This document shows, one piece after another, positions 1,787 through 28,856 of a DNA stretch of 64,000 nucleotides (positions are counted from its first letter, which is position 1; every line of letters starts with the position of its first letter). This stretch comes from an uncultured Acidobacteriota bacterium (GTDB lineage Bacteria > Acidobacteriota > JAQAZP01): assembly GCA_963836075.1 (NCBI GenBank), contig CAWIIB010000001.1, positions 768,001-832,000 on the forward strand, written 5' to 3'. The position numbers and the translations under genes were made by a program. The notes under the pieces were generated by a model. It saw only the letters and a list, made by a program, of their open reading frames with translations, ran no database searches and was not told the origin of the DNA.

Positions 1787-4525
1787 TCAGGGAGCACTAC
1801 CGGTGACCGTGCAACTGTCGGACGCGGTGTCACCGGCAGGGGCAAAGGGCGGCTGGTTGTAGGGGACCGGGGTGACGTCCTGGCCCACCAGGTTGAACTG
1901 GTTGTCGCCCACCAGCGAACCCAGCGCCGGCAGGTTCTGGTTCCAGACCGCATTGTAGGTCTCGTAGGGCGCCAGATTGGTCCAGCCGGCCCGGAAACTG
2001 CCGAAGAAGCTGCCCGAGGCAATCTGCAGCTGCAGCCTGGCGGCGGCCCGCCGGTTCTCGTCGCTGAGGTTGGTCAGCCCGCAATTGATCTGAAAGGCAA
2101 AGGGCAGGGTTCCACTGCCCGGCACGCAGGTCAACACCGTGTCGATGGTATCCACCGGCGGGGTCTGCCCCACGCCGAAGAAGCTGAGGATCCCGGCCAG
2201 CAGTTCCTCCCTGGTGCTGGGGGAGGCCCCGTCATCCAGCCCGCCGAACTCGAAGGCGAACCCCACGGTGAGGTAGCTGCCGCCGTCGTAGGAGATGCCG
2301 TTGTCATAGACCGGACTGCCGTTGGTGAACAGGGTGACCGCACCCGCTCCGGGTGAAATGTGGTCCATGTAGGCATTGCTGCCGCTGTAGGTGAAGGACA
2401 TGCCCTCGGTGAGGGTGCCGGCCACGCCGTTCACCGGTCCGCAGTCGCCGGTGCCGTCAGCGTCGCCGGTGATGTGGAAGTAGGGGTGCACCGCGGTGGC
2501 GGTGTCGTAGGCCCAGGTGTCGCCCCCCTCCATGTAGAGCCGGCCGCCCCCGTCGAGGTAGGCGGCCAGAATGCTGCCTTCGCCGCTGGTCAGCACGTGG
2601 TTGCCGGAGTAGATACCCAGACAGGCGAAGATCGCCTCGTAGAGCGCGGGATCGGCCGGCAGGGATGACCCGTTGTCATAGCCCAGGCCCAGACCGTCCA
2701 GGGCTGAGGTCAACGCCGCTTCGGAAATGCTCCCCGAGGGGTTCCAGACGTAGACCGGGATGGAGGAGACGATGCTGAAGCCGTGATACCCGGCAGCCGG
2801 ATGCCAGGTGGTGTTCAAATCACCCGAAGCGTCCACCGCGCGAATCCGGTATTCCACCAGGTCACCGTCGCTCACCGCGGCGACAAAATCGCCTGCCCAG
2901 GTATAGCCGCCGGTGTTGGTCATCGGCACCTCGGCCTGGGGCGCGCCATTGACGCTGTATTCCAGCACCACTTCGCTGAGACCGCTGGCATCGGTCACCG
3001 TGGCGGTCACCGTGGCCGGCCAGCCGCCCAGGGACTGGTCCCCCAGCGGGGTGTGGGTGATCACCGGCCAGTCGCCGGTGCTGGAAACCAGGAACCGGTG
3101 CGCGCCGGCGGATCCGATGTAGGGGTGATTCTCCGCCCGGCCCGAGTCGTCCTCGGCGTGGATGTAGTAACGGACCGAGGTGCCGTCAGCCTGGGCCGGG
3201 ATGGTGCCCTGCCAGCTGTCGCCGCCGGTGCTGGTCATGGTGACGCTGGTGAAGAAACCGCCGTCGATGCTGTATCGCAGCTGGGGGAATCCGCTGCTCA
3301 GCGGCTGACCGCTGTAGGGGTGGATTTCGGCGGTCACCAGGTAATCGCCGCCGGCGCCCTGGGGATCGATCAGCGGGGTGTGATCGATGTAGAGCATGTA
3401 ACGGTCCATGATCCCCTTGGCCCGGCAGTGGATCGCGTCGTCGGAGAGCCAGGAGCCGTCGAAGCCGATGATCTCGTAGCCCGGCATGGCGTCCTGGTAG
3501 ATCTGCAGCGCCACCGCGTCATGGGAGGTGCCGAAGGTGGGTACCAGCACCTTGGTGTTCAGGATCAGCGAGTTGGTGTAGGCCTCGGTGTAGCCGGTGC
3601 CCACCGGCACCCGGATGATCTCGTACGGCGTGCCCCAGGAACTGGTCAGGGTCTGGAGGAAGGCCACGTTGGCCTCCAGTTCCGGGTCGGCGGGAGTCTT
3701 CTCCTCCACCAGGATGGTGTCCACGTCGAGAAACTTCTTGGTGCAGTCGATATGATGGATGCCGCCCGACTCGGTGTAGGGCAACGGGTAGTAGTCGGTG
3801 ATGCCGCAGTAGTCGAGGAGGATCTGGTCCACCTGGGCCCCGGTCATCCCCGGGTTCTCGTCGAGGATCAGACGGGTGCTCATTCCCACGCCGCGGCCGT
3901 CACACATCCAGTTGCCGCCGGTGGCCACCAGGTCCATGCCGTAGACCGGGATGCCGAGGTAGTCGCCGAACTCCTGGGGGATCTCGTCATCGTTGGGCCG
4001 CGGGCGGTTGTAGATGTGGTCGACGATACCCTGCTCGTCGTTGCCGGTGTAGACATACCAGGGCCCGTAGTCCCGGGTCCAGTAGGAGTCGGTGCCGGCG
4101 ATGAAGAAGTGGCAGTTGGCCATGTTCACGCCGCTGGAACTGTAGGCGCTTTCCGCCGAGGTCTGCTGTGAAGCGCTGCCGACGATAGTCCAGACCTCCA
4201 CGTCTTCGGACATCTCGGCAATCAGGTCGTAGGGGATGCCCAGGGGCCAGCGGATCAGCACGCCGGTCACCGGCTCGAACTCGCCGGCCATGCGCACCGG
4301 CACCGGAGGCGCCGCCGTGCCGCGGAAGTTGATGCCGATCTCATCCTTGCGCGCTTCCTCCTCCGGGGTCATCCAGATGGGGAGGCTGTGCGGGTTCTCA
4401 TCCAGCCACTTCTGCTGCTCGGCGGTGAGCGGCCGTCCAGCGGGATCGGCAACGGCCTGAATGGTTCCACAGAACAGAGCACAGATCAGCAGCAGGCGCA
4501 GGATCGACACTGGGGAGATGGACAT
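1787..4525 (-). CDS. Secreted agmatine/peptidyl-arginine deiminase family protein with Ig-like modules and the shared PYNQPP C-terminal domain
   Basis: Signal peptide; deiminase motifs WTRDYGP, GGN, HHID, AIHC; two repeated HTPL...Y.I.A.D modules; GAGGAG RBS. Confidence 0.85.
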   Translation of the reverse strand: MSISPVSILRLLLICALFCGTIQAVADPAGRPLTAEQQKWLDENPHSLPIWMTPEEEARKDEIGINFRGTAAPPVPVRMAGEFEPVTGVLIRWPLGIPYDLIAEMSEDVEVWTIVGSASQQTSAESAYSSSGVNMANCHFFIAGTDSYWTRDYGPWYVYTGNDEQGIVDHIYNRPRPNDDEIPQEFGDYLGIPVYGMDLVATGGNWMCDGRGVGMSTRLILDENPGMTGAQVDQILLDYCGITDYYPLPYTESGGIHHIDCTKKFLDVDTILVEEKTPADPELEANVAFLQTLTSSWGTPYEIIRVPVGTGYTEAYTNSLILNTKVLVPTFGTSHDAVALQIYQDAMPGYEIIGFDGSWLSDDAIHCRAKGIMDRYMLYIDHTPLIDPQGAGGDYLVTAEIHPYSGQPLSSGFPQLRYSIDGGFFTSVTMTSTGGDSWQGTIPAQADGTSVRYYIHAEDDSGRAENHPYIGSAGAHRFLVSSTGDWPVITHTPLGDQSLGGWPATVTATVTDASGLSEVVLEYSVNGAPQAEVPMTNTGGYTWAGDFVAAVSDGDLVEYRIRAVDASGDLNTTWHPAAGYHGFSIVSSIPVYVWNPSGSISEAALTSALDGLGLGYDNGSSLPADPALYEAIFACLGIYSGNHVLTSGEGSILAAYLDGGGRLYMEGGDTWAYDTATAVHPYFHITGDADGTGDCGPVNGVAGTLTEGMSFTYSGSNAYMDHISPGAGAVTLFTNGSPVYDNGISYDGGSYLTVGFAFEFGGLDDGASPSTREELLAGILSFFGVGQTPPVDTIDTVLTCVPGSGTLPFAFQINCGLTNLSDENRRAAARLQLQIASGSFFGSFRAGWTNLAPYETYNAVWNQNLPALGSLVGDNQFNLVGQDVTPVPYNQPPFAPAGDTASDSCTVTGSAP

Positions 4526-4699
4526 GACTTCAGACTCTCCTCTGACGTGAGAAATGTTCGGTTCGGGGGGTGGCGAACTCCGCTGCGAACCGACAATCGT
4601 GGATGTATAACCGCATCAGCAACAAGCTGGATTCCGGTTTTTCACATGCCGAAGGTGGTGTGGCGCAATTGAGTACTACACGCACCACGGCGGGGCAAG

Positions 4700-4728
4700 G
4701 CACCTGTTCAATATAAGTCAATCGGGAT
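4700..4728 (-). promoter_or_regulatory. Possible sigma70 promoter region for the deiminase gene
   Basis: Minus strand reads TTGCAT-N17-TATATT across about 4700-4738; the -35 is weak. Confidence 0.35.
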
Positions 4729-4781
4729 GCAAATGCAAGAAACGAAACTGGTAAACATCACCGGCGGCGACAATCGAAAGG

Positions 4782-6407
4782 TCAGGTGGCCAGCAGACGT
4801 TTCACTTTGCGGTCGATTTCATTGAGTGAGAACGGCTTGTGGATCACCCCCAGGACTCCCTCATCGTCCGCTCCCTCCTCCCCGGCGAAACCACGGGCGT
4901 GGCCGGTAATGTAAAGAATCTTCGCTTGAGGGTCAATTTTGAGGATCTTGCGGCTGGCCTCCACCCCGTTCATCCGCGGCATCACCACATCCATCAGGAT
5001 CAGGTCCACTTCATCCCCGCGCTTCTCGTAGAGTTTCACCGCCTCCACTCCGTCCACCGCCTCCAGCACCCGGTAGCCCATTTCACGGAGATACTCGCCG
5101 ATGACACCACGGGCGCCATCTTCGTCATCGGTGATCATGACGGTCTGCATCAGCGGGCTCGGCCCGGAGGAGTCTATCCCCGGCTCGTGGATCGGCGAGG
5201 TGGCCTCCACCGCCCCGGTTAATCCGTCAGCCCTTCCCGGGGTAACCATTCCCGACCGCACCGGAAGCAGAATCTTGAAGGTGGAGCCCATCCCCGGCGC
5301 ACTGGTCACCAGCAGGTGGCCCTTGTGCTTGCGGATGATGGAAAAGGCCACCGAGAGTCCCAGGCCCGTTCCTTCCCCCGGCTCCCGGGTGGTGAAGAAA
5401 GGCTCGAAGATTCGTGACTGGATCTCTTCGCCCATCCCGTTGCCGTTGTCCTCGATGACGATCAGCACATAGCTCCCCGGTTCCGCCGGATGGTAGGGCC
5501 AGCTGTCGCCCTCGTCGCAATCCACTCGGGAGGTGGAGACCTGCAGCATCCCGGGGTCCTCGAGGTCCTCCCTGTTTTTGAGGGCCATGGCGCCGTTGAG
5601 GCAGATGTTCATCAGCACCTGGTCGATCTGGACCCGATCGGCCATCACCAGCGGCAGTTGCCACTCCAGCTCGGTGCGCAGTTGAATCTTCTTGTCCAGC
5701 GAGCGCGACAGCAGCTCGATGGCACTGTTCACGCAGTCATTGGCATCCAGCGGCTCCATGCGCGGGGCTTCCCGGCGGCTGTAGAGGAGCATCTGCTGAA
5801 CCAGACTGCGGGCCCGTTCACCGGCCTGGTTGATCCGCTGGGCGTATCGTGACTTGGGGTCGTCCCTGGGCAGGTTCATCAGCAACATCTCCGAATAGCC
5901 GAGGATGGCCATCAGGAGATTGTTGAAATCGTGGGCGATGCCGCCGACCAGCGTCCCCACCGACTCCAGTTTCTGGGACTGCAGCAGCTGGTCCTCGATC
6001 AGCCGCCGTTCGGTGAGGTCACGGGCCACCACGATTGCCGAACAGATTCCACTCTCGGCACGCACCGGGGAAGCCGTGGCGTGGTAGACCCGCAGGCTTC
6101 CGGCTGCGCCGTTGAGCTTCCCCTGGTCCTGCGGGCTCCGTTCCGGCAGTTCGAACTCGAATCCGATGGGCGATCCGCTTTGAATGGTCTGCTTCACGGC
6201 CCGGGCCACTGCGCTGCCCGCCTCGCCGGGGAAGATGTCCGGGGCGGTCATTCCCGCCGGTGCCGCGGGCAGGTCAACCGTTTCAAGCAGACCGGCGAAC
6301 CACGCCTCGGTGCAGCGGCCGTCCCGGTCAAATACCGCCACCAGGTCGGTCATCGCGGAGAGGAGTTCGTGGTAACGGTTCTCGCTCCCGGTGGATCTGT
6401 TGGTCAT
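4782..6407 (-). CDS. Cytoplasmic hybrid sensor histidine kinase (PAS-HisKA-HATPase-REC)
   Basis: H-box [11 protein letters not shown]-box [22 protein letters not shown] and GTGLGL boxes; C-terminal receiver ITDDED...LMDVVMP...KP. Confidence 0.93.
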
Positions 6408-6636
6408 CTGCAACTCTGCCCCCGGCCTTCCCGGGTCAAGGGGAAGGCCCGTCGATTTAACCGGCGGTCCCCGGCGCCGGATCTTGCCGACACCATTGCC
6501 GGCCGTTCCGTACCGCGTCAGGTGCGCAGTGCAAAACGGTGCACAGACCCGTGAGAACCTCTCTTGTTGTTATCGGTATACATGGTGCCGAGTTAAGCCC
6601 CCGGGGCACTAAATCCGCCGGCCAGCGGGACGGAGA

Positions 6637-8538
6637 TCACGGGCGCCAGGCGACGACCGTGCACATGTCGCTGGCCATGCTGCCCGATGCGGGGTATGGC
6701 GGCTGGTTGTAGGGCGCCGGAGTGACGTCCTGTACCACCAGCTGGAACAGGGTCGACCCGTCCAGCGTGGGCAGATCGGGGAACCACTGGCTCCAGCAGT
6801 AATGATACGTTTCCGCCGGGGAGAGATTGGTGAACCCGCGGCGGTAGTTGGGGAAATACTGCCCGCCGGGCAGCGCGACGTTCAGTATGCCGACAGCGCT
6901 GCGGGGATAGCCGGAGACGTTGATCACATCCCCGCACATCATACTGGAGAACGGCAGGGCGCTGGAGTCAGGCGTGGCGGAAAGCGCGGCGTCAACCGTC
7001 TGGTCCCCCGAGTACCCCATGTCGGTCCTGATGACAAACGCATCACAGTCGCCGTTGTGCGACTGGTCGAACCCCGTGCCGGACAGCTGAAAATTGTCGC
7101 TGAAAGTGTAGCCGGCCACCACCGCGGTGAGGCCGCTGCTGTCCAGGGCCAGCTCGTAGGCCTGGTCACAGTTGATCCCCCCCATGTATGACGCGTAGAT
7201 CAGGGTGGACAGGTCGCCGCTGACCCGGGCTACGAACCCCTCCATGGCGCCGTTGTACGTCTGGTCCGTGGCGTCGGGGGTTGCCGGGAAATCGATGGAG
7301 TGGCTGCCACCGCAGATCACCAGATCACCGGCGGCATCCAGCTCCACCGAGTAGATCTCGTCCATGTGCCGGCCGCCCATGTAGCTGGAGTGGATCAGGC
7401 TGCTCAGGTCGGGGCTCATCACCGCCAGAAAACCGTCGTAGGCCTGGGCCGTACCGTCGTTGAACTGGGGGTCGAAGGTGCCGAGGGTGATGGGAAAGTC
7501 GTGGGAGTGGGTGGTTCCCACCACCACCAGGTTGCCCTGGGTATCGAATACCAGGCCGTTGGCCTCGTCGCAACCGCCTTCATGGTCGCCGCCATGAAAA
7601 GGCTCGCCCCAGTCGTGGCCGCCAAGGTAGGTGCAGGCATGGAGGCTGCTGAAATCGGCGGAGAAGAGGGCGATATACACGTCGCGCGAACCGCCGTTGT
7701 GATCCAGGTCGAACGCACCGGCGGTGGTGGGCAGGTTTTCGGAGTTCGCCCAGCCGGTGAGATAGTAGCGGCCGCTGCCGTCCCGAAGGATGGCCCGGTT
7801 GTAGTCGTCCAGGTCCCCGCCCAGATAGGTGCCGGCGGAGACCGCCGAGAGGTCCTGGGAGAAGCGGATGAGAAAGATATCCCGGGTGCCCCCGTTGTAC
7901 GTGGTGTCAAAGGCCCCGGCCGTGACCGGGAACCCCTGGGACCGGGTGTCCCCCCCCACCACCACCGCCCCCGAGGGCTCGACCCAGACCGTCCGGGAGA
8001 AATCCTTGTGTTCGCCGCCGAACAGCGTGGAGTGCAGCAGGGTGGACATGTCGGAGGAAAGCCGGAGCAGGAAGGCATCCTCGTGAACCGTGTTGTGCGC
8101 GGTGTCGAACGCCCCGGGCGTGGTGGGAAAATCGAGCGAGAGGGTGGAACCGCCCAGCAGGATGTTCCCCGCGGCATCGAGGGCCATGCACGGCCCGGGA
8201 TTGTCCATCTGGAAGTAGGGATCGAACTCGAAGTCGAGACCATCGTGCTCCGAACCGCCGATGAAGGTCGAGGCGATCAGCGTGCCCAGGTCGGCGGAGA
8301 GCCGCAGGACGAACAGGTCGCTGTCCCCGCCGGCAAAAGATCCGCCATACAGACCGGCGGTCACCGGAAAATCGTCCGATCCGGTGAGGCCGGCCACCAG
8401 GACGTCACCCTGATCATCGATCACTACGCTGTAGGCGGCATCCCGCTGGCCGCCCCCCAGAAAGGTGGAATAGTCCACCGCCGTGGCGGAGGTTGCAAAC
8501 AACAGCATGATCGACAGAATCCCGATGAATCTGGGCAT
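6637..8538 (-). CDS. Secreted SBBP-like beta-propeller repeat protein with the shared PYNQPP C-terminal domain
   Basis: Signal peptide MPRFIGILSIMLLFATSATA; about seven repeats of STxxGG...SxDFPxTxGxxDxxxNG..DxF; GGAG RBS. Confidence 0.8.
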   Translation of the reverse strand: MPRFIGILSIMLLFATSATAVDYSTFLGGGQRDAAYSVVIDDQGDVLVAGLTGSDDFPVTAGLYGGSFAGGDSDLFVLRLSADLGTLIASTFIGGSEHDGLDFEFDPYFQMDNPGPCMALDAAGNILLGGSTLSLDFPTTPGAFDTAHNTVHEDAFLLRLSSDMSTLLHSTLFGGEHKDFSRTVWVEPSGAVVVGGDTRSQGFPVTAGAFDTTYNGGTRDIFLIRFSQDLSAVSAGTYLGGDLDDYNRAILRDGSGRYYLTGWANSENLPTTAGAFDLDHNGGSRDVYIALFSADFSSLHACTYLGGHDWGEPFHGGDHEGGCDEANGLVFDTQGNLVVVGTTHSHDFPITLGTFDPQFNDGTAQAYDGFLAVMSPDLSSLIHSSYMGGRHMDEIYSVELDAAGDLVICGGSHSIDFPATPDATDQTYNGAMEGFVARVSGDLSTLIYASYMGGINCDQAYELALDSSGLTAVVAGYTFSDNFQLSGTGFDQSHNGDCDAFVIRTDMGYSGDQTVDAALSATPDSSALPFSSMMCGDVINVSGYPRSAVGILNVALPGGQYFPNYRRGFTNLSPAETYHYCWSQWFPDLPTLDGSTLFQLVVQDVTPAPYNQPPYPASGSMASDMCTVVAWRP

Positions 8539-8677
8539 GGCCTGCTCCAAGGTTTTTCAGCCGTCGACAAACCCCCGGATGCGGATGCACCGCCGGCGTC
8601 AACGCAACAGTATAATCATAGTGACTTTTCACCCGTATCGGCAAGTCCGGCCGGGCAGATCAGGACGGACAGTGGAG

Positions 8678-8708
8678 AAAAAAAATGCGGGGGATTCTGG
8701 TCCCCCGC
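8678..8708 (-). terminator. Intrinsic terminator
   Basis: 8-bp stem GCGGGGGA/TCCCCCGC with a 6-nt loop, followed on the minus strand by an 8-T tract. Confidence 0.75.
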
Positions 8709-8830
8709 CAAGCCGATGATGACATTTTCTGTTCCCTCCGGGTTCGCGAACCGGACTCCACTTCACCACTCCAGCCCACAAACCCGAAGTCATGCCGGAA
8801 AGAAAACAGAGGTCGATCGCAAAATGTCGT

Positions 8831-8923
8831 TCAAATAGTGCCCGTGGCGGGCAGCAAAGCCACAAACAGAGTCAGCAGGGCAATCCAGAACATGATCTCC
8901 ACCAACCGTTTTACCTGAGTCAT
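8831..8923 (-). CDS. Small hydrophobic protein, 30 aa (MTQVKRLVEIMFWIALLTLFVALLPATGTI)
   Basis: Translated by hand (below the ORF-track cutoff). AGGAGG lies 6 nt before the ATG; single TM-like helix; downstream terminator. Confidence 0.6.
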   Translation of the reverse strand: MTQVKRLVEIMFWIALLTLFVALLPATGTI

Positions 8924-9223
8924 GACCAACCTCCTGGATTTCAACCACCACTTCTCATCGCCTGGTTGTTACTTCAAGTCCTATGCCAACCAGAGGCGAT
9001 CCTCCGGACATTGCGGCCACAAGAGGCATCGAAAGCAGTTAATCGTTGACGTGAATAAAGTTACTTACGAGGGCAGGCCGGCACGAAAAAGCGTCAACAG
9101 TGCCGGATCAGGTGAGGCGAGGGGTGGGATTCGTATCATGGGAAAAAAATGCACACCCGCAGAGGGTAAAGAATTACCACCTTCACGACGAGTGTGCACT
9201 TTATTACCACTCAAAGCTAACAA

Positions 9224-10507: not shown

Positions 10508-10663
10508 CGCTTCGCACCTCATCGTTATTTTACGGATTTACCGTCCCTTCGATCATCGAAAACGGCGAACTGCCCTGCCGGTGGCCGGCGGTCCGCCAGC
10601 AAAGGCCAAATATATACCACGCCGGGCGACGATTGTTAACCCATAACCAGACAGCACCAATCC

Positions 10664-10691
10664 TTGACATTCCTTGCCGCCGACCTAGAAT
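10664..10691 (+). promoter_or_regulatory. Sigma70-type promoter
   Basis: TTGACA-N16-TAGAAT just upstream of the CDS at 10717. Confidence 0.6.
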
Positions 10692-13207: not shown

Positions 13208-13359
13208 GGTCGTCATCTCCTTGTAATCAGTCCTGGGGCGCCGGGCGCCGCGTGCAAGCGCCCATTCTACGACCACCCGTCCGGCAAGACAATAGCCGGC
13301 AAAACCGTTATAATTCCGGATTCCTTTTCAGCCCGCAATCTGAGTCGATGGAGAACGAG

Positions 13360-15368
13360 ATGGACAACCCGGACCGCCGCCAACGAAAATCGGGCCTGAG
13401 CCCCCTGGCTTACGAGAGGGTGCCAAAGGGTCAGAAATACGAGCCATACATCCCGGTGAACTCGATCATGGCCGAGTTCACCATCAGCGCCTGTGTCCTT
13501 GGCGGGCTGTTCGGCATCATCTTTGGTGCGGCCAACGCCTACCTCGGCCTCAAGGTGGGCCTGACCATCTCCACCTCGGTGCCCATCGCGGTGATCACCG
13601 TGGCGGTCTACAAGGCGATCGAAAAGCTGATCCGTAAGAAAGCCACCATCCTCGAAGCCAACATCGCCAAGACCGCCGGATCGGCCTCCTCTTCGCTGGC
13701 TTCGGGCATCATTTTCACCATCCCGGCCCTCTATCTCTGGGGCCAGGGAGCCCAGCTGCTCCAGGTCACCGCCCTGGCCCTTTGCGGCGGGACCCTCGGG
13801 GTGCTGTTCATGATCCCGCTGCGCCGCTTCCTCATCGTGGAAGAGCACGGCAACCTGCCCTACCCCGAAGGTACGGCCGGCGCCGAGGTGCTGGTGGCTG
13901 CCGAGGAGGGCGGCTCGGCGGCCAAGCAGGTGTTCTACGGCATGGGCTTCGCCGCACTGTTCAAACTTGGCATGGCGGCGTTCAAACTCTGGAAGGACGA
14001 GATCGAGTTCAAGATCCCGCTGCTGAAGAAGGGTGTGATCGGCGTCGATCTCACCCCCGCCCTGCTGGGCGTGGGCTACATCCTCGGCTACCGGGTGGCG
14101 GCGATCATGGTGGCCGGCGGCCTGCTGGCCTGGCTGGGAATCATCCCGCTGATCGCTTTCCTCGGCGAATCGATCTCAATCCCGGTCTTTCCCGAAACGG
14201 CGAAGACCATCTCCCAGATGGACGCCCACGAGCTGTGGAACGGCTACATCCGGTATGTGGGAGCCGGCGCCGTGGCGTCTGCCGGGATCATCACCCTGAT
14301 CCGTTCCATCCCCACCATGATCCGCAGTTTCCGCATCGCGCTCAAACAGCTGAAAGCCGGAGCGCAGAAGGTTTCCGAAACCTGCCGCGCACCGACCGCG
14401 ACCTCTCGCTGCTCTGGGTGGTTCTGGGCGCGCTGGTGGTGGTGATCATCCTCGGCCTGACCCCCGACGTCTTCGGCGGTCAGCTGCCGCTGGCCGGCAA
14501 GTGGCTGGCCGCGGTGCTGGTGGCGGTGTTCGCCTTCTTCTTCGTCACCGTCAGTTCGCGGATCGTGGGGCTGGTGGGGGTCACCTCCAACCCCACGTCG
14601 GGGATGATCATCGCCACCCTCATCGGCACCTCCTCGATCTTCCTCCTCCTCGGCTGGACCGGCATGGAGGGCAAGATCGCCGCTTTGACCATCGGCACGG
14701 TGGTGGGTATCGCCGCCTCGGTGGCCGGTGACACCTCCCAGGACCTGAAGAGCGGCTTCCTGCTGGGGGCCACCCCCTGGCGTCAACAGGTGGCCGAGAT
14801 CCTGGGCGTGGCGGCCACCGCCGGGGTGATCGCCTGGACGGTGATGGTGCTGGCCCAGACCTACGGCTTCGAATACAGCGCGGCCACCCCCACGCCGCTG
14901 GCTGCCCCCCAGGCCAACATGATGAAACTGGTGATCGACGGTGTGCTGGACCAGTCGATCCCCTGGGGCCTGGTGCTCTTCGGGGTGGTGATCACCATCT
15001 TCTGTGAAGTGGTAAAGATCCCCTCCCTGCCCTTTGCCGTGGGCGTCTACCTGCCCCTCTCGGCCATGAGCCCGGTCTACATCGGCGGGGTGATCCGCAA
15101 GGTGATCGAAAAACGGTGCGGCGGAGACGAGAAAAAGATCCAGGAGCGCCGCGAGCGGGGCATCCTCTTCGGCTCGGGAATGGTGGGCGGAGACGGGATC
15201 ATCGGCGTGGCCATCGCCGCCTATGCGCTGTATACCAAGAAGAAGCCCGGGGGATTCGGTTCGGCCTGGGCCGGCGGCGACATCGGCCAGACCCTGTTGG
15301 CCCTGGTGCCCTATGTCCTGCTGATCATCCTGCTGATCCGGGCCACGCGGTTGAAGAAAGCCGCCTGA
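13360..15368 (+). CDS. OPT family oligopeptide transporter (one apparent frameshift near 14380)
   Basis: AYLGLKVG and LPYPEG in the first frame; SNPTSG, QDLKSG and APQA in the second frame. One missing A in GAAACC would join them. Confidence 0.85.
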
Positions 15369-15386: not shown

Positions 15387-18854
<3,468 letters not shown>

Positions 18855-20426: not shown

Positions 20427-20543
20427 CCGGTCATGCTAGATCAACCACCGGGTGGTGACAAGCCGGAACAGCGGTGTCCGCATCCCGAAGGGCGGGTCCG
20501 GATGACGGCCGAGCACCTCAGGCAGGCGGAAGACACCTCGGCA

Positions 20544-22076
20544 TCAGGGATTCTCGCCCGGTTCCCAGGGGGAGATGATTGGTGCCGGGCCGAGGATGGC
20601 GGCGCTGAGATCGGGCAGGGGGCCCACCTGTCGCGGATCCCCCCCCTGAGGGGTGCCGGTCTGCCGCAGACACCGGAGCAGTTCCCCGGGGGACATGGGA
20701 ACTCCGGTCCGGGCCAGGTAGCAGCCCTGGAGCGCGCAGACGGCGCCGGCGGTCATGGCTCCGGCGCCTGACGTGCCGCCGAATCCGTCGGTGTAGGTGG
20801 CGTTGGGCCCACCGTTGTACAGCAGCCCGTACCCCGCGGTGACGATCCCGCTGCCGTGGGCGTGCAGGTCCACGCGGCTGCCATAGTTGGTCCAGCAGGC
20901 CGGCTTCCCGCTGCCGGGAACTCCAGCCCCCACCAGGATCGCCCCGGAATCACGAAGGTGACGGTGGAAGGCGCCCTGATAGCGCGGGTGGTCGAGGTCC
21001 ATGGAACCATTGCCGGCGATCTCCACGCAGAGGACCTGGTTGGCCGTGGTGGTGGAGATGGCGTCGAAGTTCGCCTGCCAGTATTCCAGGGGCAGATACT
21101 CGAACGACTGGCAGGAGCACTGGCAGGTCTCACCGGATTCCGGACCCGGGGCGTGGTATTCGATGAGCATCACGTCACCGGCGCGGAGCAGTGTTTTCAG
21201 CTCGATGATCGCGTCGGCGATCACCGGATACGGCGGCTCGGTTTCAAAGAGCGAGACGTGCAACTGGGCCTCCGGCGCCACCCCCATCACCCCGAACCCG
21301 TTGTGCATGCCGAGAATCTCGCCGAGCACGGCCGTGCCGTGGTCCAGCACCGTTTGTTTTCCGGCCCAGGTCTCCGGTTGGGGCAGGTCCTCGTGGTCCG
21401 GGTTGAGCCCCCGCTCCACCAGGCCGATCCGCACCCCCTCGCCCCGGCCACCGGGCCATTCCCAGGCAAAACAGGCATCCAGCCCCAGGGGAGCCGGTTC
21501 GAGATACTGCTGCAGGCCGGAAAAATCGGGGGTCCCGCTGCCGTTGCCCTCCCCGGCCGGGTCCTCAGGAACGGACAGGTGTATCGCCCCACGCTCGGCC
21601 AGCGGCTCGAAATAGGCCAGTTCCACCACCTCGAGACTGTTCAGGTCGTCCAGCAGCAGCGAGGGGTTGGCGCCGGGCACAGGTGTGAGGAGGAAGTAGA
21701 GGTTCAGGTCGGCCAGTTCCCGTCCGGAAAGCAGCTGTCCGGAGAGCCGGTCCTGGTCCAGCGCCCACTCGGACCGCGAAAAGAGGCTTCGGACCGCAGG
21801 GTGGCCATGATTCCCCAGCACCTGCTGCAGCCCCTGGAGCGGCGTCCCGTTGAGGCTCACCAGCTCGCCGTTCCGCAGGCGCACCCTGCTCCCCTCGGCG
21901 CACTTGAGAACCACCAGTTCCTGGTGCCGGCCCTCCCGCCACGGGCTGTGCAACGGTTTGGGCCTCACCAGGCGGGGAACCAGATCCTCCCCTGCCCCGG
22001 CAACGGCCGGAGCCACCGCGCAGACCACGGCCGTGAGCAGCGAGAGTATGAATGTTCCTCTACAGCAGGTGCGCAT
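20544..22076 (-). CDS. Secreted S8 (subtilase) family serine peptidase
   Basis: Signal peptide, prodomain, DHGTAVLG, AGNG, NYGSRVD, GGTSGA. Confidence 0.85.
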   Translation of the reverse strand: MRTCCRGTFILSLLTAVVCAVAPAVAGAGEDLVPRLVRPKPLHSPWREGRHQELVVLKCAEGSRVRLRNGELVSLNGTPLQGLQQVLGNHGHPAVRSLFSRSEWALDQDRLSGQLLSGRELADLNLYFLLTPVPGANPSLLLDDLNSLEVVELAYFEPLAERGAIHLSVPEDPAGEGNGSGTPDFSGLQQYLEPAPLGLDACFAWEWPGGRGEGVRIGLVERGLNPDHEDLPQPETWAGKQTVLDHGTAVLGEILGMHNGFGVMGVAPEAQLHVSLFETEPPYPVIADAIIELKTLLRAGDVMLIEYHAPGPESGETCQCSCQSFEYLPLEYWQANFDAISTTTANQVLCVEIAGNGSMDLDHPRYQGAFHRHLRDSGAILVGAGVPGSGKPACWTNYGSRVDLHAHGSGIVTAGYGLLYNGGPNATYTDGFGGTSGAGAMTAGAVCALQGCYLARTGVPMSPGELLRCLRQTGTPQGGDPRQVGPLPDLSAAILGPAPIISPWEPGENP

Positions 22077-22238
22077 CTCCAACCCCGCAAAGAAGGCCGA
22101 AAAAGCGTCGAGCCCCAAGAAACAACAACCAGGTTACATTCGGTCAGTGAGACTGTGCGGGATTGTCGCGGAAGATGACGGGCACCACCGGGACAACCGC
22201 TTCCTTAAAAATAAATATAGGTTTCCCAGGAGGTGCCG

Positions 22239-23285
22239 TCAATGGGAAAATAGCGGGGAAAGCTCTTCGGCCAGTTGCCGCGAGAAGACACGGGCGCCGG
22301 TCTCGGTGGGGTGGCACCACCAGTCGGCAAACTGCTCGTCCGCTCCGGCCCTCAGCCAGGGGCCGACCCAGCGGAGATCGTCCCGTGCGGAAATGGTCTT
22401 CTCCCAGAAAGTGCGGACCTGCCGGTTATACCCCCGTGACAAATTGTGGTTGAACAGGCTCAGCGGCTGGGGGGTGGCAAAGAGATAGAGCGGAATCCCC
22501 CTGGATGAGCAGAGTTCGGCCAGGCGGTCCAGCTGTACCGCCCGTTCCGGCAGGACGCCAAAGCTGGCGTTCCAGTAGGCGCTCTCCCGCCGCACGCGGC
22601 GGCCCAGGCTGCCCTGCACGAAGGGCACGTATCCCGACTCCTCCTCCAGGCGGGCCCATAAATCGCCCGGGGTGCGGAGGATCAGTCCCTCCTTGTCCCC
22701 GGTGGCCGGGTAGCGGAAACTGCCGCTCTGCAGCCCCTGACGCAGGTAGGCCAGGCGCGCCCGCGACGGCACGCGACCCTCGATCCAGTCCAGCCACGGA
22801 TCGAGACCGGCGCTCCTGCCCAGCGCGGCCACATCGGAAAAACGATAGAGCGAACGCACCTCGAACCCTCCGGCCAGCGGTTTCCGCGGCCCGAGGAAAA
22901 GCGGGACCACCGAGGCCAGGACCGCTTTGGGCGGCGGGTGGTGCCGCAGATACTCGTCGAGAATGATCACCAGGGTCTCCACCGGGCAACCGTTGATCGC
23001 CAGGTTGACGCAGTGCAGGTCACCGCCCCAGACATCCTCCATCTCCCGGGGCGCCAGCCCGTGCACCACCCGGCTGGCCCCCAGCAACAGCACGTCGGCG
23101 TCAGGCGCCACGCGGCCCAGCTGTTCCATCTTCCAGCGCAGGACGCACTCCTCATAGCCCAGCAGCTTTTCGTTGCTCAGCCAGAAAGCGGCCTCGCCGC
23201 CCAGCACCAGGACCAGGGCCAGGGCCAGGGCTATCCAGCGGCCCTGGGCCGGATCAGAACTGGAAGTAGATGAACGGTTGGGCAT
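22239..23285 (-). CDS. Membrane-anchored SGNH-like partner of the MBOAT (AlgJ/DltD-like)
   Basis: N-terminal TM; LGASR, NLAING, DxxxH-like FADWWCH; overlaps the MBOAT gene. Confidence 0.65.
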   Translation of the reverse strand: MPNRSSTSSSDPAQGRWIALALALVLVLGGEAAFWLSNEKLLGYEECVLRWKMEQLGRVAPDADVLLLGASRVVHGLAPREMEDVWGGDLHCVNLAINGCPVETLVIILDEYLRHHPPPKAVLASVVPLFLGPRKPLAGGFEVRSLYRFSDVAALGRSAGLDPWLDWIEGRVPSRARLAYLRQGLQSGSFRYPATGDKEGLILRTPGDLWARLEEESGYVPFVQGSLGRRVRRESAYWNASFGVLPERAVQLDRLAELCSSRGIPLYLFATPQPLSLFNHNLSRGYNRQVRTFWEKTISARDDLRWVGPWLRAGADEQFADWWCHPTETGARVFSRQLAEELSPLFSH

Positions 23286-24717
23286 CGGGAGTCCCCAGGA
23301 TAATGATCGAGAAATAGAACAGGGCGTACAGGCCGCCGCGGACCATGGCCGGCAACCGGAAAACCACGAACTCGTCGTTGGTGCGATACTGCCAGACCTC
23401 CAGCGCCGTGGTCAGCGGGAAGAGCAGCAGCAACACGGTCTGCTGGCTGGCCAGCAACTCCATGGTGCGGGGAAGATTGACACCGAGGTCCATGGCCGAC
23501 TGTGCGGCCCGGACGATGAAGCCCGGTGTCGGCGCGCGGAAGAGCACCCAGCTGCCGCAGACCAGGACGAACATCAGCAGCACGCCGAACATCCGGAACG
23601 CGGCCCGCGGCAGCGGCCCGGCCGCGGCCAGCCGCGACACCGCCGCACTGCGGGCCATCAGCGCCCGCCAGGCGGTACCGGCCAGTCGGTAGGCCACCAG
23701 CAGCAAGCCATGGTAGAGCCCCCAGAGGACGAAGAGCCAGGAGGCGCCGTGCCACAGCCCGCCCAGCAGCATGGTGACCATCAGGTTGATCCAGGTGCGG
23801 GCCCTGCCCCGCCGGTTTCCCCCCAGCGGGATGTAGAGGTAGTCGCGAAGCCAGCTGGAGAGCGAGATGTGCCAGCGATTCCAGAACTCGCTGGGATCGG
23901 CGGAGAGGTAAGGGATGTCGAAGTTGCGCATCAGACGAAAACCCATCAGCCGGGCCAGCCCGCGGGCGATATCGGAGTAGCCCGAGAAGTCACAATAGAT
24001 CTGGAAGGCAAAGGCGACCACGCCCACCACCAGTTCCCCGCCGGCCGGAGCCTGGTGACCGGCAAAGACCCTGTTGGCCAGCAGTCCCAGGTTGTCGGCG
24101 ATCACCATTTTCTTGAACAGGCCCCAGAGGCAGAGCCAGGCCCCGGCCCTCAGATCTTCAGCATCGGTTGTCCGCGGCCGTTCGATCTGGGGCAGCAGGC
24201 GCCCGGCCCGTTCGATGGGCCCGGCCACCAGCTGGGGAAAGAAGGCGACGTAGAGGGCCAGGTCGGGGAGGCTCCGGCGGGCTTTGATGGTTCCGCGGTA
24301 GACCTCGATGGTGTAACTCATGGTCTGGAAGGTATAGAAGGAAATGCCCACCGGCAGGACGATGTTCAGCGTCACCTCATCCACCCGGAACCCCGCCATG
24401 TGCATCAACTGGGCCAGGGAGGAGGCGAAGAAATTGAAATACTTGAACAGGCCCAGCAGCCCGAGGTTGCTGACCACACTGGCGATCAGCCAGCCCCGGC
24501 GGCGGTTGGCCGAGGAACCGGCCTCGATCATTCTGGCGCTGACATAGTCGACGATGGTGGAGAGCCAGATCAAGCCGAGGAACCGCCAGTCCCACCAGCC
24601 GTAAAAGACGTAGCTGGCCAGCAGGAGCAGTCCGTTCTGCCGGCGGTGCGGCAGGAAATGGTAAAGCGAGAAGACCAGGGCGAAGAAGAGCCAGAAAACA
24701 AGGGTGTTGAAAAGCAA
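23254..24717 (-). CDS. MBOAT family O-acyltransferase (AlgI/DltB-like)
   Basis: PVGISFYTFQ, FPQLVAGPI, DFSGYSD, FWNRWHISLS, GLWHGA, FIYFQF; TTG start after GGGAG. Confidence 0.93.
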   Translation of the reverse strand: MLFNTLVFWLFFALVFSLYHFLPHRRQNGLLLLASYVFYGWWDWRFLGLIWLSTIVDYVSARMIEAGSSANRRRGWLIASVVSNLGLLGLFKYFNFFASSLAQLMHMAGFRVDEVTLNIVLPVGISFYTFQTMSYTIEVYRGTIKARRSLPDLALYVAFFPQLVAGPIERAGRLLPQIERPRTTDAEDLRAGAWLCLWGLFKKMVIADNLGLLANRVFAGHQAPAGGELVVGVVAFAFQIYCDFSGYSDIARGLARLMGFRLMRNFDIPYLSADPSEFWNRWHISLSSWLRDYLYIPLGGNRRGRARTWINLMVTMLLGGLWHGASWLFVLWGLYHGLLLVAYRLAGTAWRALMARSAAVSRLAAAGPLPRAAFRMFGVLLMFVLVCGSWVLFRAPTPGFIVRAAQSAMDLGVNLPRTMELLASQQTVLLLLFPLTTALEVWQYRTNDEFVVFRLPAMVRGGLYALFYFSIIILGTPDAQPFIYFQF

Positions 24718-24751
24718 AGCGTCTCCCGGAAGTGCGCTCGAACCATCCTGA

Positions 24752-26458
24752 TCAGCGGAACTTCTTATGCTCCGCCGTCTGATACTCACGGGTCAAACGG
24801 ACCACCACCTTGCGCAGGGCAACGATGGCAAACAGGTTGGGCAGGGCCATCAGCCCCAGCGCCGCGTCGCCGAAGGCCCAGACCACCTCCAGGGAGAGTA
24901 TCGCCCCGATGAAGTGCACCACCACAAAGACAATCCGGTAGGGCACGATGGCCCGCCGTCCCAGGAGATACTCGATGGACCGGTCGCCGTAGTACGACCA
25001 GGAGATGGCGGTGGAGATGGCGAAGAGGAAGACGCCGAAGGTGACGATGAAGTTGCCGCCGGGAAAGAGGAAGGCCAGCCCCCGCTGGAAACCCCAGGCG
25101 GTGAGCGGCGAGGAGTTGAGCATCGCCCGGCCACGCAGCCGCACGTTCTCCGCCGGCCGGCCCCGGTCGTCGAAGAACTGCGGGCGGTCCTCCGCTTCGG
25201 GCACCAGCAGCGTCCCGGTGAACAGTTCCCCGTGATGGAGCAGTACCGCATCCTCCATCAGCGAGTGGCTCTTGATCAGCGCCAGCCCCTGGGGAACCCC
25301 GTTGACCACCGCTGCACGACCGCTGAACAGGCTTTCCCCGGACAGTTCACCGGTGACCAGGACAGTGCTGCCCTGATGGACAAAGACGATCTCCTCCTCG
25401 GCGGTGAAGCGCAGGGTGACCTCTTTTTTGTCCTTCCACACGCCGGTGGTGACAATCACCAGGCCGGTGATGGTGCAGATCACCAGGGTGTCCACAAAAG
25501 GTTCTATCAGCGCCACCACCCCCTCGCGCACCGGCTCCTTGGTCTTGGCCGCGGCGTGGGCGATGGGGGCGCTGCCCTGACCCGCCTCGTTGGAGAAGAG
25601 CCCCCGCTTGACGCCCCAGACCAGGGTGAACATGAACACCGACCCGGCAAATCCGCCCACCTGGGCCGGAGGATCGAACGCGCCGGAGATGATCTCCCAG
25701 AAGGCGGCCGGGATCTGGTCGTAGCGATTGAGCAGGATCAGCAGCCCCCCGGTGGTGTAGATGGCGGCCATGAAAGGCGCCAGCTTCGAGGTGACCGCAC
25801 CGATCCGGCGGATCCCGCCGAGGATTACGGCGCCCACCAGCACTGCGGAGAAGAGGCCGGTGATCCAGGTGGGGATCAGAAAGTCGGCCTTCATCGAGTC
25901 GGCCATGGTGAAGGCCTGGATGGCGTTTCCCGTGCCAAAGGAACAGATCACGGCCAGGATGGCGAAGCAGATGGCCAGCCAGCGCCAGCCGGGGCCCAGG
26001 CCTTTTTCGATGTAGTACATCGGGCCGCCGGAGGCGGAGCCGTCGGGATTGATGTTGCGGTAGTGGTGGGCCAGGGTGCATTCCACATACTTGAGGGTCA
26101 TGCCGAAGAAGGCGGTGAGCCACATCCAGAACAGGGACCCCGGACCGCCGTAATGGATGGCGATGGCCACCCCGGCAATATTGCCGATGCCCACCGTGGC
26201 CGAGAGCGCCGCGGACAGGGCCTGGAAATGGCTGATATCGCCCTCGTCGTCCGGGTCGTCGTAATCGCCGCGGATGACCCGCAGAGCGTGGCGGAACTGT
26301 CTCAGCTGTATGAAGGAGAGCCGCAGGGTGTAAAAGACACCGGTGCCCAGCAGGGCGATGACCAGGATCGGCATCGCCGCAGGGAAACCCCAGATGGTGT
26401 CACGGGCGAAAAAGACGGCGCTGCGCAGCAGGTCGAGCAGAAAGTGGACGGCCTCCAT
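24752..26458 (-). CDS. Sodium:alanine/glycine symporter (AGCS family)
   Basis: ATVGIGNIAGVA, GGPG, GGPMYYI, FSNEAGQGS, DTLVICT, WSYYG. Confidence 0.93.
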   Translation of the reverse strand: MEAVHFLLDLLRSAVFFARDTIWGFPAAMPILVIALLGTGVFYTLRLSFIQLRQFRHALRVIRGDYDDPDDEGDISHFQALSAALSATVGIGNIAGVAIAIHYGGPGSLFWMWLTAFFGMTLKYVECTLAHHYRNINPDGSASGGPMYYIEKGLGPGWRWLAICFAILAVICSFGTGNAIQAFTMADSMKADFLIPTWITGLFSAVLVGAVILGGIRRIGAVTSKLAPFMAAIYTTGGLLILLNRYDQIPAAFWEIISGAFDPPAQVGGFAGSVFMFTLVWGVKRGLFSNEAGQGSAPIAHAAAKTKEPVREGVVALIEPFVDTLVICTITGLVIVTTGVWKDKKEVTLRFTAEEEIVFVHQGSTVLVTGELSGESLFSGRAAVVNGVPQGLALIKSHSLMEDAVLLHHGELFTGTLLVPEAEDRPQFFDDRGRPAENVRLRGRAMLNSSPLTAWGFQRGLAFLFPGGNFIVTFGVFLFAISTAISWSYYGDRSIEYLLGRRAIVPYRIVFVVVHFIGAILSLEVVWAFGDAALGLMALPNLFAIVALRKVVVRLTREYQTAEHKKFR

Positions 26459-26600
26459 GGGTGAACCTCCGGAAAAGAACTGTGTCGGCAGAGGCGATAC
26501 GTGGGAGAAATTCTAGCCGGGTGCCGACAGGGTGTCAACGAACCGGCCGGGGACCCTGCCTTTCGCCGGCGCAACGGTTGGCGACAATTCCAACAATAGC

Positions 26601-26782
26601 TGTGGAAAACCTTGTGGAAAAATGAGCCGCAGGTTCTGCAAGTCAAAGCGGGACAAGGACTTTGCTTGAAATGACCGAAATGTGTAATTGCGCATTTCAC
26701 TGAAAACATTAGGGTTACGAGCAGGATTATTCCTCCGTGCCTCAGTCATCCCCGATTCTGGTCCCAACCCACTTTTTCCACA
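26601..26782. promoter_or_regulatory. Cluster of three DnaA-box-like 9-mers
   Basis: TGTGGAAAA at 26601 and 26613 and TTTTCCACA at 26774, each one mismatch from TTATCCACA, in a 600-bp AT-richer intergenic region. Confidence 0.5.
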
Positions 26783-26925
26783 CGCCCAAGAGCAATAAAA
26801 ACCGCCATTTAGTCAAAAACAGCTCACTAATTTTGCCTGCCCGGCGTGTATCCTGCACACCTGTCATGGCGGAATTGGTGGGCAGACCGGTAGTGGCTGG
26901 TCGCGCAGTCCACAGAGGCCCGTTC

Positions 26926-26953
26926 TTGACTATCCCGTATATTTTCCTATATT
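26926..26953 (+). promoter_or_regulatory. Sigma70-type promoter
   Basis: TTGACT-N16-TATATT upstream of 27063. Confidence 0.5.
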
Positions 26954-27062
26954 TAACAGTACAAGGCCGTGGTCATTCCTTTATCCGGATTTTCAATACC
27001 TACTAAAATCAGGATTATCAGGAGACCCGCGGGGTATTCTTCAGGTCTAAAGGAGGCACAGA

Positions 27063-28856
27063 ATGTCACGACGAATCTTCAACGCACTCATAATGGTCAG
27101 CCTGCTCGCACTCATCGCTACGGCGGCCTCGGCGGAGTATCCGATCGACGTACCAGGAGTGTATCACCACCGGGATACTCCCGGTCTGGATCGCAGTGTC
27201 TGCGTGCTCGAACGGGTTGACGGCGGTTTTGACCAGCGGGTCCTTTCTTCCGGCGGACCGCCGGCACCGGGCACCCGGGTGGCCGGAGAGATGTGGCGCG
27301 TGGAGGACTGGGACGGCGCGTACGGCGCCATCGCCGAGGACGTGCAGATCTCCGGCAACGGCCAGCGGATTCTCACCGCCTGGAACCTGAACTACGAACG
27401 GTTCAGCCTCTTCCCCATCGACAACGACACACCGCTCTGGGAGTACGCCCTGGCCGATGGCTCCACCCAGGTGGGCGGCTACGTCAGGGCGGCCATCGCC
27501 GATGACGGGATGAGCATGGTGGGCGGCGCCAGCCGCATGGACACCATCCCGGCCAGCGGCGAATACTCGCGGGTCTTCCGTTTCAGCACCAGCGCGACCC
27601 CCGACTGGACCTTCGACCTGCCCACCGACCCGGAGATCTGGCACCTGCAGGACGTGGCCCTTTCCGGCGACGGGAGCACGGTCGGGGTGCTGGCCATCGA
27701 TAACAGCGCCACCACCGGCCGGGTCTACGTTCTCGACGGCATTTCAGGCACCGAACTCCACCAGTGGGACTTCGACTACACGGTTTCCAGTTCGCTGTAC
27801 AACATCGATTTCAGCGGCGACGCCTCCCGGCTGGTGGTGGGCTGCCGCAAACTGATCCATGTCTATGACATCCCCGGCGGGCTGCTCCAGACCATCACCC
27901 TGGCCTACGACTGCCAGTGCCCGGCCCGGATCACGCCCGATGCCGGCTACATCGCCGTGGGCAATCTCCGCGGCCGGCTCACCGTCTACACCCTCGCCAC
28001 AGCGGACGGCACACCGGACCTCTACACGGAATACTGGACCTATACCATCCCGCCCGACTACTACTACCCCTGGATCCAGACCGTGGCGGTGGCCGCCGAC
28101 AGCAGCCGGGTGCTGGTGGGCTCGTACCAGCCGAACGCGACCAGCAGCCATGGCTACCTCTACTTCTTCGACATGGACGGAACCGAACCGCAGTGGTCTT
28201 CCGAGGACTCGGGCGGACTGGTGGAGGAGGTGGCCTGCAGCGCCAACGGCACGGTGGCCTGCGCCGGCTCGTGGGGCGATCTCGACGGGGCCATGGGCTG
28301 GTGCTGTCTGATCGCCACGGACAATGGCGCACGGTACACCCTGACCAGCATGGACTACGGCGGATCGCTCTTCTCTGCCGACATCGATGACGCCGGGTAT
28401 TTCGCCACCGGCGGGAGCAAGCGGGTCCACGCCTACGAGTTCGGCAGCGGCGGCCACACCTTTGCCATGTTCTCAGGGATCAAGGTGGAGACCTTCCTCC
28501 TCGACATCGAGTTGACGCCGAGCACCGGCACTCTGCCCTTCTTCGGCACCACCACCCTCACCCTGACCAACCTGACCAACGGGCCGCGCACCTCCGCGGG
28601 CCGCGTGGACGTCATCGTGGCCAGCGGGGCCAGACTGAACAATGTCCGTGGGGGGTACGCCAACGTCCCTGCCGGAGATGTAGTACAGTTCTCCTACCCA
28701 CAGAAATTCCTCGAACGGCAGTACCTGGTGGGCGAAAACACCTTCATCCTCACCGGACAGGATGTGACCAACGCCCCGTACAACCAGCCGCCGTACTATC
28801 CGGCGGGCGACAAGGATATGGACAGCTTCGTGGTCACCTGCACCTGGCAGCCGTGA
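27063..28856 (+). CDS. Secreted WD40/PQQ-like beta-propeller protein with the shared PYNQPP C-terminal domain
   Basis: AGGAGG RBS; signal peptide ending ATAASA; repeated V.IS.DG...W blades. Confidence 0.8.
   Translation: MSRRIFNALIMVSLLALIATAASAEYPIDVPGVYHHRDTPGLDRSVCVLERVDGGFDQRVLSSGGPPAPGTRVAGEMWRVEDWDGAYGAIAEDVQISGNGQRILTAWNLNYERFSLFPIDNDTPLWEYALADGSTQVGGYVRAAIADDGMSMVGGASRMDTIPASGEYSRVFRFSTSATPDWTFDLPTDPEIWHLQDVALSGDGSTVGVLAIDNSATTGRVYVLDGISGTELHQWDFDYTVSSSLYNIDFSGDASRLVVGCRKLIHVYDIPGGLLQTITLAYDCQCPARITPDAGYIAVGNLRGRLTVYTLATADGTPDLYTEYWTYTIPPDYYYPWIQTVAVAADSSRVLVGSYQPNATSSHGYLYFFDMDGTEPQWSSEDSGGLVEEVACSANGTVACAGSWGDLDGAMGWCCLIATDNGARYTLTSMDYGGSLFSADIDDAGYFATGGSKRVHAYEFGSGGHTFAMFSGIKVETFLLDIELTPSTGTLPFFGTTTLTLTNLTNGPRTSAGRVDVIVASGARLNNVRGGYANVPAGDVVQFSYPQKFLERQYLVGENTFILTGQDVTNAPYNQPPYYPAGDKDMDSFVVTCTWQP

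Follow-up and report, generated by a model that had tools for sequence, protein, structure and literature searches.

A lineage-restricted C-terminal domain on exported proteins of an uncultured Acidobacteriota bacterium, a candidate address module

Why do a deiminase, an SBBP beta-propeller protein and a third, propeller-like protein, encoded within 64 kb of each other and unrelated in their bodies, all end in the same domain? The three genes lie in a stretch of 64,000 nucleotides (the window) from the genome of an uncultured Acidobacteriota bacterium, whose assembly comprises 6.23 Mb in 10 contigs (64% G+C, 94.7% complete). A reading made from the letters of the window alone, here called the sequence-only reading, had proposed that the shared end, hereafter the tail, is a lineage-specific tag for export or for attachment to the cell surface. 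That proposal is partly supported by the present analysis: architecture, copy number, taxonomic range and predicted fold agree with it, whereas neither a partner nor a translocon was found. The tail probably docks or sorts proteins at the cell envelope.

The tail domain and the proteins that carry it

The genes of the deiminase and the SBBP protein lie on the minus strand, a point on which the sequence-only reading was silent. The N-termini of all three window proteins look like Sec signal peptides, as judged by eye, and direct reading of their C-termini revealed no hydrophobic stretch, transmembrane helix or basic tail. Between these ends the bodies are non-homologous to each other, so that a common C-terminal domain on unrelated secreted proteins, as initially described, is confirmed. 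In Pfam the deiminase body matched PAD_porph (E 8.3e-33) and CBM_56, and in NCBIfam weak agmatine deiminase models alone, far below cut-off. The second body matched SBBP (E 3.6e-13); its open reading frame (ORF) counts 637 amino acids (aa) from a TTG, and an ATG four codons in is the likely start. The third body gave no significant Pfam family (Beta-prop_ACSF4, at E 0.0076, was far under the cut-off), and a 598-aa public relative obtained in the search with the tail carries PF13360.

When aligned over their last ~127 residues the three tails exhibit 31 invariant columns, including the motif QDVTxxPYNQPP, and the second and third are 43% and 39% identical to the first. The sequence-only reading had reported an ungapped alignment with about 29 identical positions; the count was near the mark, but one single-residue indel close to the end of the third tail breaks the ungapped register. 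At the DNA level the tails are only 52-57% identical, and of the 36-49 residues that a pair has in common 15-24 are encoded by different codons. The tails are thus old copies under protein-level selection, as had been argued from their synonymous differences. A profile derived from the whole genome recognised them at E 4.9e-57, 5e-47 and 5.1e-43, and the window contains exactly three copies.

The expectation of many more copies genome-wide was borne out. A profile of the three sequences gave 150 scored matches from 281 candidates, all at E ≤3.8e-34, and a profile search of 37,094 frames of at least 80 aa located the domain in 216 open frames (counted as six-frame stop-to-stop frames, not as gene calls). 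In 197 of the 216 no more than 10 residues separate the end of the domain from the stop, and a single frame holds two copies, in line with the earlier claim of one copy per protein at the C-terminus. Twelve non-terminal or weak cases were read individually. Five proved to be frameshifted in or just after the domain, five represent a divergent C-terminal variant devoid of the PYNQPP loop, and the remaining two are a weak match and the two-copy protein. The divergent variant, found in at least five frames, could represent an earlier or a parallel version of the module; additional Cys (CNCD, and a TTxC-like end) are present in four of the five. A further frame, of 1029 aa, consists of a signal peptide, a body, a tail, a second copy of the body and a different, Cys-rich end, and looks like two tandem paralogues fused through stop loss. 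Many genes split between frames, tailed C25 peptidase genes among them, point to assembly indel errors or pseudogenes.

The same arrangement was observed in 221 public proteins with the domain, 218 of which carry it at the C-terminus and three internally; seven have two tandem tails and one has two separated copies. The sequence-only reading had held that homologues often found internally or in tandem would mark an ordinary Ig-like (immunoglobulin-like) module; the internal copies read in the genome are mostly frameshifted, and tandem tails are confined to these 7 of 221. Signal peptides co-occur with the tail, as predicted. An early heuristic applied to raw frames was too unspecific (137/216 against 223/600 controls), and a stricter rule on called proteins was therefore used, which was passed by 156 of 200 Met-started public tail proteins and, among those of at least 400 aa, by 141 of 162, as compared with none of 161 internal Met-started control segments. 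Thirteen short public proteins consisting of the tail only showed, upon inspection, no recognisable signal peptide at their start and are read as gene fragments.

The cargo is diverse. Single-linkage clustering placed 183 bodies of at least 60 aa in 44 groups, 34 of them singletons. The bodies of the public relatives include C25 peptidases with propeptide, S8, M14, M28 and M23 peptidases, BNR and sialidase-like proteins, beta-helix lyase-like proteins, and FG-GAP, SBBP and PQQ-like propellers, and in none of these relatives is the tail assigned to a Pfam family or named by the source. In 51 of 170 cases the tail closest to a given one is borne by a related body (6.7% expected by chance), in the other 119 by an unrelated one, and tails are about equally alike either way (48% identity for related bodies, 46.8% for unrelated ones). 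This indicates that the module has moved between body families.

The tail family is small and sharply bounded. A pattern scan over one genome per species found copies in just two other assemblies, titled Acidobacteriota bacterium and uncultured bacterium. A profile search detected the domain in 3 of 41 relatives, every other genome of that set being related at the phylum level only. In a phylum sample, with at most 10 candidates scored per genome, it was present in 3 of 401 genomes, all belonging to one genus among 227. One of the genomes without the domain is marked as unpublished. Finally, out of 1.84 billion protein representatives 501 matched at E 0.001, 464 at 1e-10 and 375 at 1e-30.

Predicted fold and relation to known C-terminal modules

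The tail spans ~125 residues, for which AlphaFold2 (30 tails) predicted an eight-strand Ig-like sandwich with a pLDDT of 93.6 and a pTM of 0.82. An Ig-like fold had been suspected from the first strand, and the structural comparisons agree. In VIA-align the matches included RbmA (4be5, Z 12.5), the AlkC Ig-like domain (11.4), a transglutaminase barrel (11.2), CARDB (3idu, Z 10.5, root mean square deviation 2.7 over 101 residues) and PKD (4xed, Z 10.0); the best Foldseek match had an E-value of 4.7e-5, with TM scores of at most 0.66. Neither Foldseek nor VIA-align listed a C-terminal domain (CTD) of the type IX secretion system (T9SS), although such an absence from lists does not exclude a structural match. 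Complex prediction with two tail copies gave a score of 0.01 against a mark of 0.42, which speaks neither for nor against self-association.

Pairwise identity between tails has a median of 47% (5-95% range 31-60%), and 18 columns are at least 90% conserved, most densely in DVTPAPYNQPPYxPxGD. This segment belongs to a conserved 16-residue loop (residues 103 to 118), which the AlphaFold2 model places between the two final strands. In 133 copies the loop has PYNQPP, in 29 PFNQPP. Exactly 19 residues follow NQPP in 154 of the 172 copies bearing it, and the terminal residue is Pro in 169 of 196 full terminal copies, 117 of which end in Ala-Pro. Judged from the strand order of the model, the three most conserved loops would lie at the same end of the sandwich as the linker to the body. 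Two Cys residues, in the first and the last strand, occur together in 128 copies and are both missing in 27, with either one alone in 24 and 17 (odds ratio 8.5). This covariation would fit a disulphide, and hence an oxidising compartment.

In the family databases searched the domain appears to be uncatalogued, as the sequence-only reading had supposed. Pfam and NCBIfam gave no match to the tails of the three window proteins at E up to 1. Thirty tails on their own produced only chance matches to Pfam at E up to 10, in one to three members each, and none to CARDB (PF07705). When a profile of 187 tails was compared with 14 T9SS tails in hhalign, the probability was 14% in local and 0.8% in global mode; against the C-termini of deiminase homologues it was 3.9% for FlgD_ig, 0.7% for Dockerin and 0.1% for PKD. 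Protein Atlas scores were at most 0.85, with a weak lead to CARDB clusters. The motif was not found in the literature searched, and nothing relevant was found there on Acidobacteriota with T9SS and a C-terminal domain.

What other proteins carry in the place of the tail is informative. Homologues of the deiminase body from other lineages are 50-58% identical to it, and among 120 homologues listed 37 have Dockerin_1, 14 a T9SS CTD, 12 FlgD_ig (two of these also a T9SS CTD) and 16 PKD; these alternative modules are C-terminal in the sequences inspected. Canonical dockerins also occur in eight proteins of the present genome, at the C-terminus in seven, and the tail is found in none of the eight. 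The bodies of six of them are homologous to tail-bearing bodies (27-42% identity, E down to 7e-71). Since homologous bodies carry either module, tail and dockerin are alternative ends on related enzymes of one cell.

The tail resembles the type I dockerin (PF00404) of the dockerin/cohesin system in that one C-terminal module is found on numerous secreted enzymes of unrelated families, with highly similar paralogues, and in its position on homologous deiminases and on homologues of tail bodies in this genome. On the other hand, there is no sequence relation between the two. A dockerin is a ~60-residue pair of calcium-binding helical segments, whereas the tail is modeled as all-beta, and a cohesin-like receptor specific for the tail was not found in the genome. 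Like the T9SS type A CTD (PF18962/TIGR04183) and the FlgD_ig CTD (PF13860), the tail is a folded Ig-like domain at the very end of hydrolases and propellers exported by Sec; a large cargo set per genome and the same slot on deiminases are further common features. It differs from them in matching none of their models and in being longer, with the 16-residue loop and the Cys pair. CARDB, the FnIII-like domain of RbmA and PKD are alike in fold class; CARDB and PKD domains, however, occur internally and in tandem arrays, whereas the tail domain is terminal and single. Finally, PEP-CTERM/exosortase, LPXTG/sortase and GlyGly-CTERM systems also employ a C-terminal tag common to many exported proteins of one lineage, but the tail is a folded domain that ends in ...TVTGxAP rather than in a transmembrane helix or a basic end.

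Docking, export and other explanations

Our tentative reading, held at somewhat less than even confidence and by analogy with known systems, is that the tail may be a lineage-restricted modular address domain for docking or anchoring of the dockerin or S-layer homology (SLH) kind, though homologous to neither. Strong conservation among paralogues (47% median identity, columns concentrated in the long loop and a fixed end) suggests one common partner. Sec would export the cargo, and the tail would fold in the oxidising periplasm into its eight-strand Ig-like sandwich, clamped in most copies by a disulphide between the first and the last strand. The end of the sandwich next to the linker, with the three conserved loops NL[TS]xENRR, TNLxPGE and DVTPAPYNQPPYxPxGDTD, would then bind a single common partner, most likely a cell-envelope or matrix ligand (protein or polysaccharide), and ~200 hydrolases and propeller proteins would thereby be held at one place. 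That the tail binds anything at all, the nature of its ligand, and the passage of the cargo through the outer membrane are what we infer here, whereas the architecture, copy number, predicted fold, conservation pattern, signal peptides, narrow range and interchange with dockerins and T9SS tails in one slot are what the data show.

The case for docking is not strong, and several points weigh against it. Paralogues are non-independent, and the Cys statistic and the conservation figures therefore overstate constraint. The fold matches are generic Ig-like sandwiches, uninformative on function. An export signal, too, would be expected to occur once per protein and to have a fixed C-terminal end. 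Several genes are split by frameshifts, so that the tail counts refer to frames and not to genes. The searches made found no binding partner. No gene recurring within 4 kb of tail genes suggests one, the recurring neighbours being generic only (response regulators, a Ser/Thr kinase-like family and ABC transporters), and half-against-half local alignment of the frames found no repeat-rich scaffold. Two cohesin-like domains are present in the genome, but they do not track the tail, since the canonical dockerins are their likely partners and since they occur phylum-wide.

One of these domains ends a secretin, the second of three secretin matches in the genome. The first belongs to a PilMNPQ pilus cluster; the second is accompanied by PilM-like and PilN-like proteins, pseudopilins and a neighbouring T2SS-E/MshEN ATPase. 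In this secretin (834 aa) a lipobox, TPR, FecR_C, Secretin_N and Secretin are followed by a long acidic linker and, at the C-terminus, by Cohesin (33.5 bits, cut-off 24.1). The literature searched contained no paper that brings together secretin, cohesin domain and type II secretion. As a receptor for the tail this secretin is unsupported, since 24 of the 41 relatives have the cohesin part as well (for the most part within frames of 750-970 aa) and canonical dockerins are at hand. The other cohesin-like domain (24.2 bits, cut-off 24.1) follows the lipobox and Pro-rich linker of a small lipoprotein, whose gene adjoins that of a 794-aa exported protein devoid of a Pfam family.

Further candidates were examined and dropped. 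Among tail-less frames, internal repeats scored highest in a UvrA-like protein and in a multihaem cytochrome, neither of them a scaffold. Two frames of ~2180 aa fuse TamB, POTRA and Omp85, and were rejected as carrier-specific machinery because frames of similar length occur in several other families of the phylum. In the Ser/Thr kinase-like family 22 of 35 members lie within 4 kb of tail genes as compared with ~19% of all coding-like frames, an excess that is biased upward since the family was seeded from neighbours. The sequence-only reading had recommended a search for co-distributed partners; searches of neighbour genes and of T9SS parts were carried out, and no partner emerged.

The most serious alternative, somewhat unlikely in our view, is that the tail is a signal for export across the outer membrane, by the logic of a T9SS CTD: the folded tail would be read in the periplasm by a candidate translocon, for instance a type II-like secretin system, and might be removed afterwards. 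Its strictly C-terminal position, one copy per protein and fixed last residue fit such a signal. So does the cargo (C25, S8, M14 and M28 peptidases, sialidase-like proteins, propellers), which is typical of T9SS, as does the presence of a T9SS CTD or FlgD_ig in the same slot of homologous deiminases elsewhere, and the genome has secretins and a T2SS-E ATPase cluster. The T9SS itself, however, did not come to light. PorV was found neither in this genome nor in any of 41 relatives, the three carriers included, with a positive control detected. SprA (TIGR04189, SprA_N), GldM_1st and Por_Secre_tail were not found either, in searches where the controls were silent or weak and which did not extend to GldK, GldL and GldN. 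Tail-less frames of at least 1300 aa number 29; the 20 largest were scanned, and all had other Pfam families and none was SprA-like.

The C25 peptidases might have been taken for a lineage-specific sortase or partner, all the more so as the family is expanded in the carriers (25, 15 and 15 matches as compared with 0-7 elsewhere). They were rejected in this role, since the family is widespread (24 of 41 relatives) and since the tail-bearing copies score 30-72 bits against the PorU model NF033707, far below its cut-off of 420. Exosortase_EpsH was not found in the genome, its positive control being detected, nor was the Slam/DUF560 outer-membrane protein (PF04575) of the T11SS, for which the control gave no match anywhere. 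The tail profile, as described above, reached no more than 14% probability against T9SS tails, and the median tail identity of 47% is also unlike these, since T9SS CTDs are usually far less similar to each other. Tandem tails, too, would be unexpected of a signal. High tail identity, tandem tails, the conserved loop face and the alternation with dockerins together make us favour docking over an export signal.

A wider formulation, in which the tail would be a transferable recognition domain of a non-T9SS pathway for outer-membrane export or surface attachment, in a phylum whose genomes yielded no T9SS parts in the searches made, seems unlikely to us; in one version of it, a secretin-based type II-like system would read the folded C-terminal signal. 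If true, it would amount to a new protein-sorting system with ~3-4% of the genome's genes as cargo.

Distinctly less likely is a substrate-targeting role, in which the tail, like a carbohydrate-binding module (CBM) or the PKD and PPC domains of proteases, would bind an external insoluble substrate (e.g. prey cell walls, detritus or polysaccharide) and not the cell's own envelope. The fold resembles CARDB, PKD, CBM and RbmA-type sandwiches, the cargo consists mostly of hydrolases, tandem copies occur, and PKD occupies the same slot in 16 of the 120 deiminase homologues listed. On the other hand, propellers and proteins without enzyme domains are among the cargo, and at least 44 unrelated body groups make a broader set than a substrate-specific CBM would serve. 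CBMs may also lie elsewhere than at the very end of a protein, whereas the end of the tail is fixed to the residue. That the tail is a passive structural cap, i.e. a stable disulphide-clamped Ig domain ending in Pro that protects or solubilises its cargo in a secretome rich in proteases, with no partner, is the least probable explanation: the fold is indeed generic and a terminal Pro would resist carboxypeptidases in an organism that secretes many peptidases, but conservation peaks in the long loop and not in the core strands, the domain is all-or-none by lineage (3/401 genomes), it alternates with dockerins on homologous bodies, and a spacer would not be so strictly terminal as the domain is in 197 of 216 frames.

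Surrounding genes and significance of the tail

The positions of the tail-bearing genes, their domains and the other loci mentioned are collected in the table. Apart from the tail proteins the window encodes housekeeping, sensor and transport functions, with no secretion genes among them, in agreement with the previous remark that no dedicated translocon is found there. Its oligopeptide transporters, symporter and peptidases fit a peptide-scavenging life, in line with the protease-rich cargo of the tail. A B12-dependent set is also present, and a 1423-aa hybrid sensor kinase (Reg_prop and Y_Y_Y) is situated among its genes.

Table. Location of tail-bearing genes, tail domains and other loci; positions refer to the window, except those that begin with G000, C1 or C9, which lie elsewhere in the genome.
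Feature	Position	Strand	Basis and details
Deiminase gene, 912 aa, exported	1787..4525	-	ORF, translation, Pfam; order: signal peptide, PAD_porph, CBM_56-like and Ig-like modules, C-terminal tail domain
Deiminase tail domain, residues 782-912	1790..2182	-	Profile envelope, alignment, AlphaFold2 model; paired Cys at residues 800 and 905; terminus ...GSAP
Deiminase tail loop, QDVTPVPYNQPP	1847-1882	-	
Deiminase probable Sec signal peptide, MSISPVSILRLLLICALFCGTIQA, followed by VA	4457..4525	-	By eye; cleavage site before VA inferred via the AXA rule
SBBP beta-propeller gene, exported, with C-terminal tail domain	6637..8550	-	ORF, translation, Pfam
SBBP tail domain, residues 506-637	6640..7035	-	Alignment, profile; terminus ...AWRP
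SBBP tail loop, QDVTPAPYNQPP	6697-6732	-	
Propeller-like gene, 597 aa, exported, with C-terminal tail domain	27063..28856	+	ORF, translation
Propeller-like protein, signal peptide MSRRIFNALIMVSLLALIATAASA, followed by EY			
Propeller-like tail domain, residues 464-596	28452..28850	+	Alignment, profile; without the usual Cys pair; terminus ...TWQP
Propeller-like tail loop, QDVTNAPYNQPP	28758-28793	+	
Two OPT oligopeptide transporters, sodium:alanine symporter, M20 and M24 peptidases	13252-14445, 24752-26458, 40004-43381, 46107-47300		
B12-dependent set: MetH, cobalamin adenosyltransferase, MeaB, two methylmalonyl-CoA mutase subunits	15387-18854 and 28897-29448 to 34131-39230		
Divergent tail variant	C9 1122467, C1 587828, C1 1909419, C9 1048599, C9 664447		Script coordinates
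Frame with the tail between two copies of the body, 1029 aa	C9 694374-697463	-	Script coordinates
Genes split between frames (examples)	C1:1790650-1792861, C9:398055-400344, C1:1628349-1630557		
Secretin with C-terminal Cohesin	G000:C1:2169994-2172495	-	
Small cohesin-like lipoprotein	G000:C1:1016987-1017820	-	
TamB-POTRA-Omp85 frames	G000:C9:1011951-1018484 and G000:C9:2267510-2274076		

Shared C-terminal modules address whole bacterial secretomes, and every further one discovered has opened the way to a new machine or a new chemistry of anchoring (T9SS, sortases, exosortases, cellulosomes). The tail described here is an uncatalogued module on ~200 hydrolases and propellers per genome, present in one uncultured genus of a phylum in which PorV was not detected, and it alternates with dockerins. 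With a profile of the domain, annotators could mark the cargo proteins in metagenomes. A partner, if found, could provide display work with a compact disulphide-stabilised tag of defined binding, and would show how this lineage organises its very large extracellular arsenal of proteases and glycosidases.

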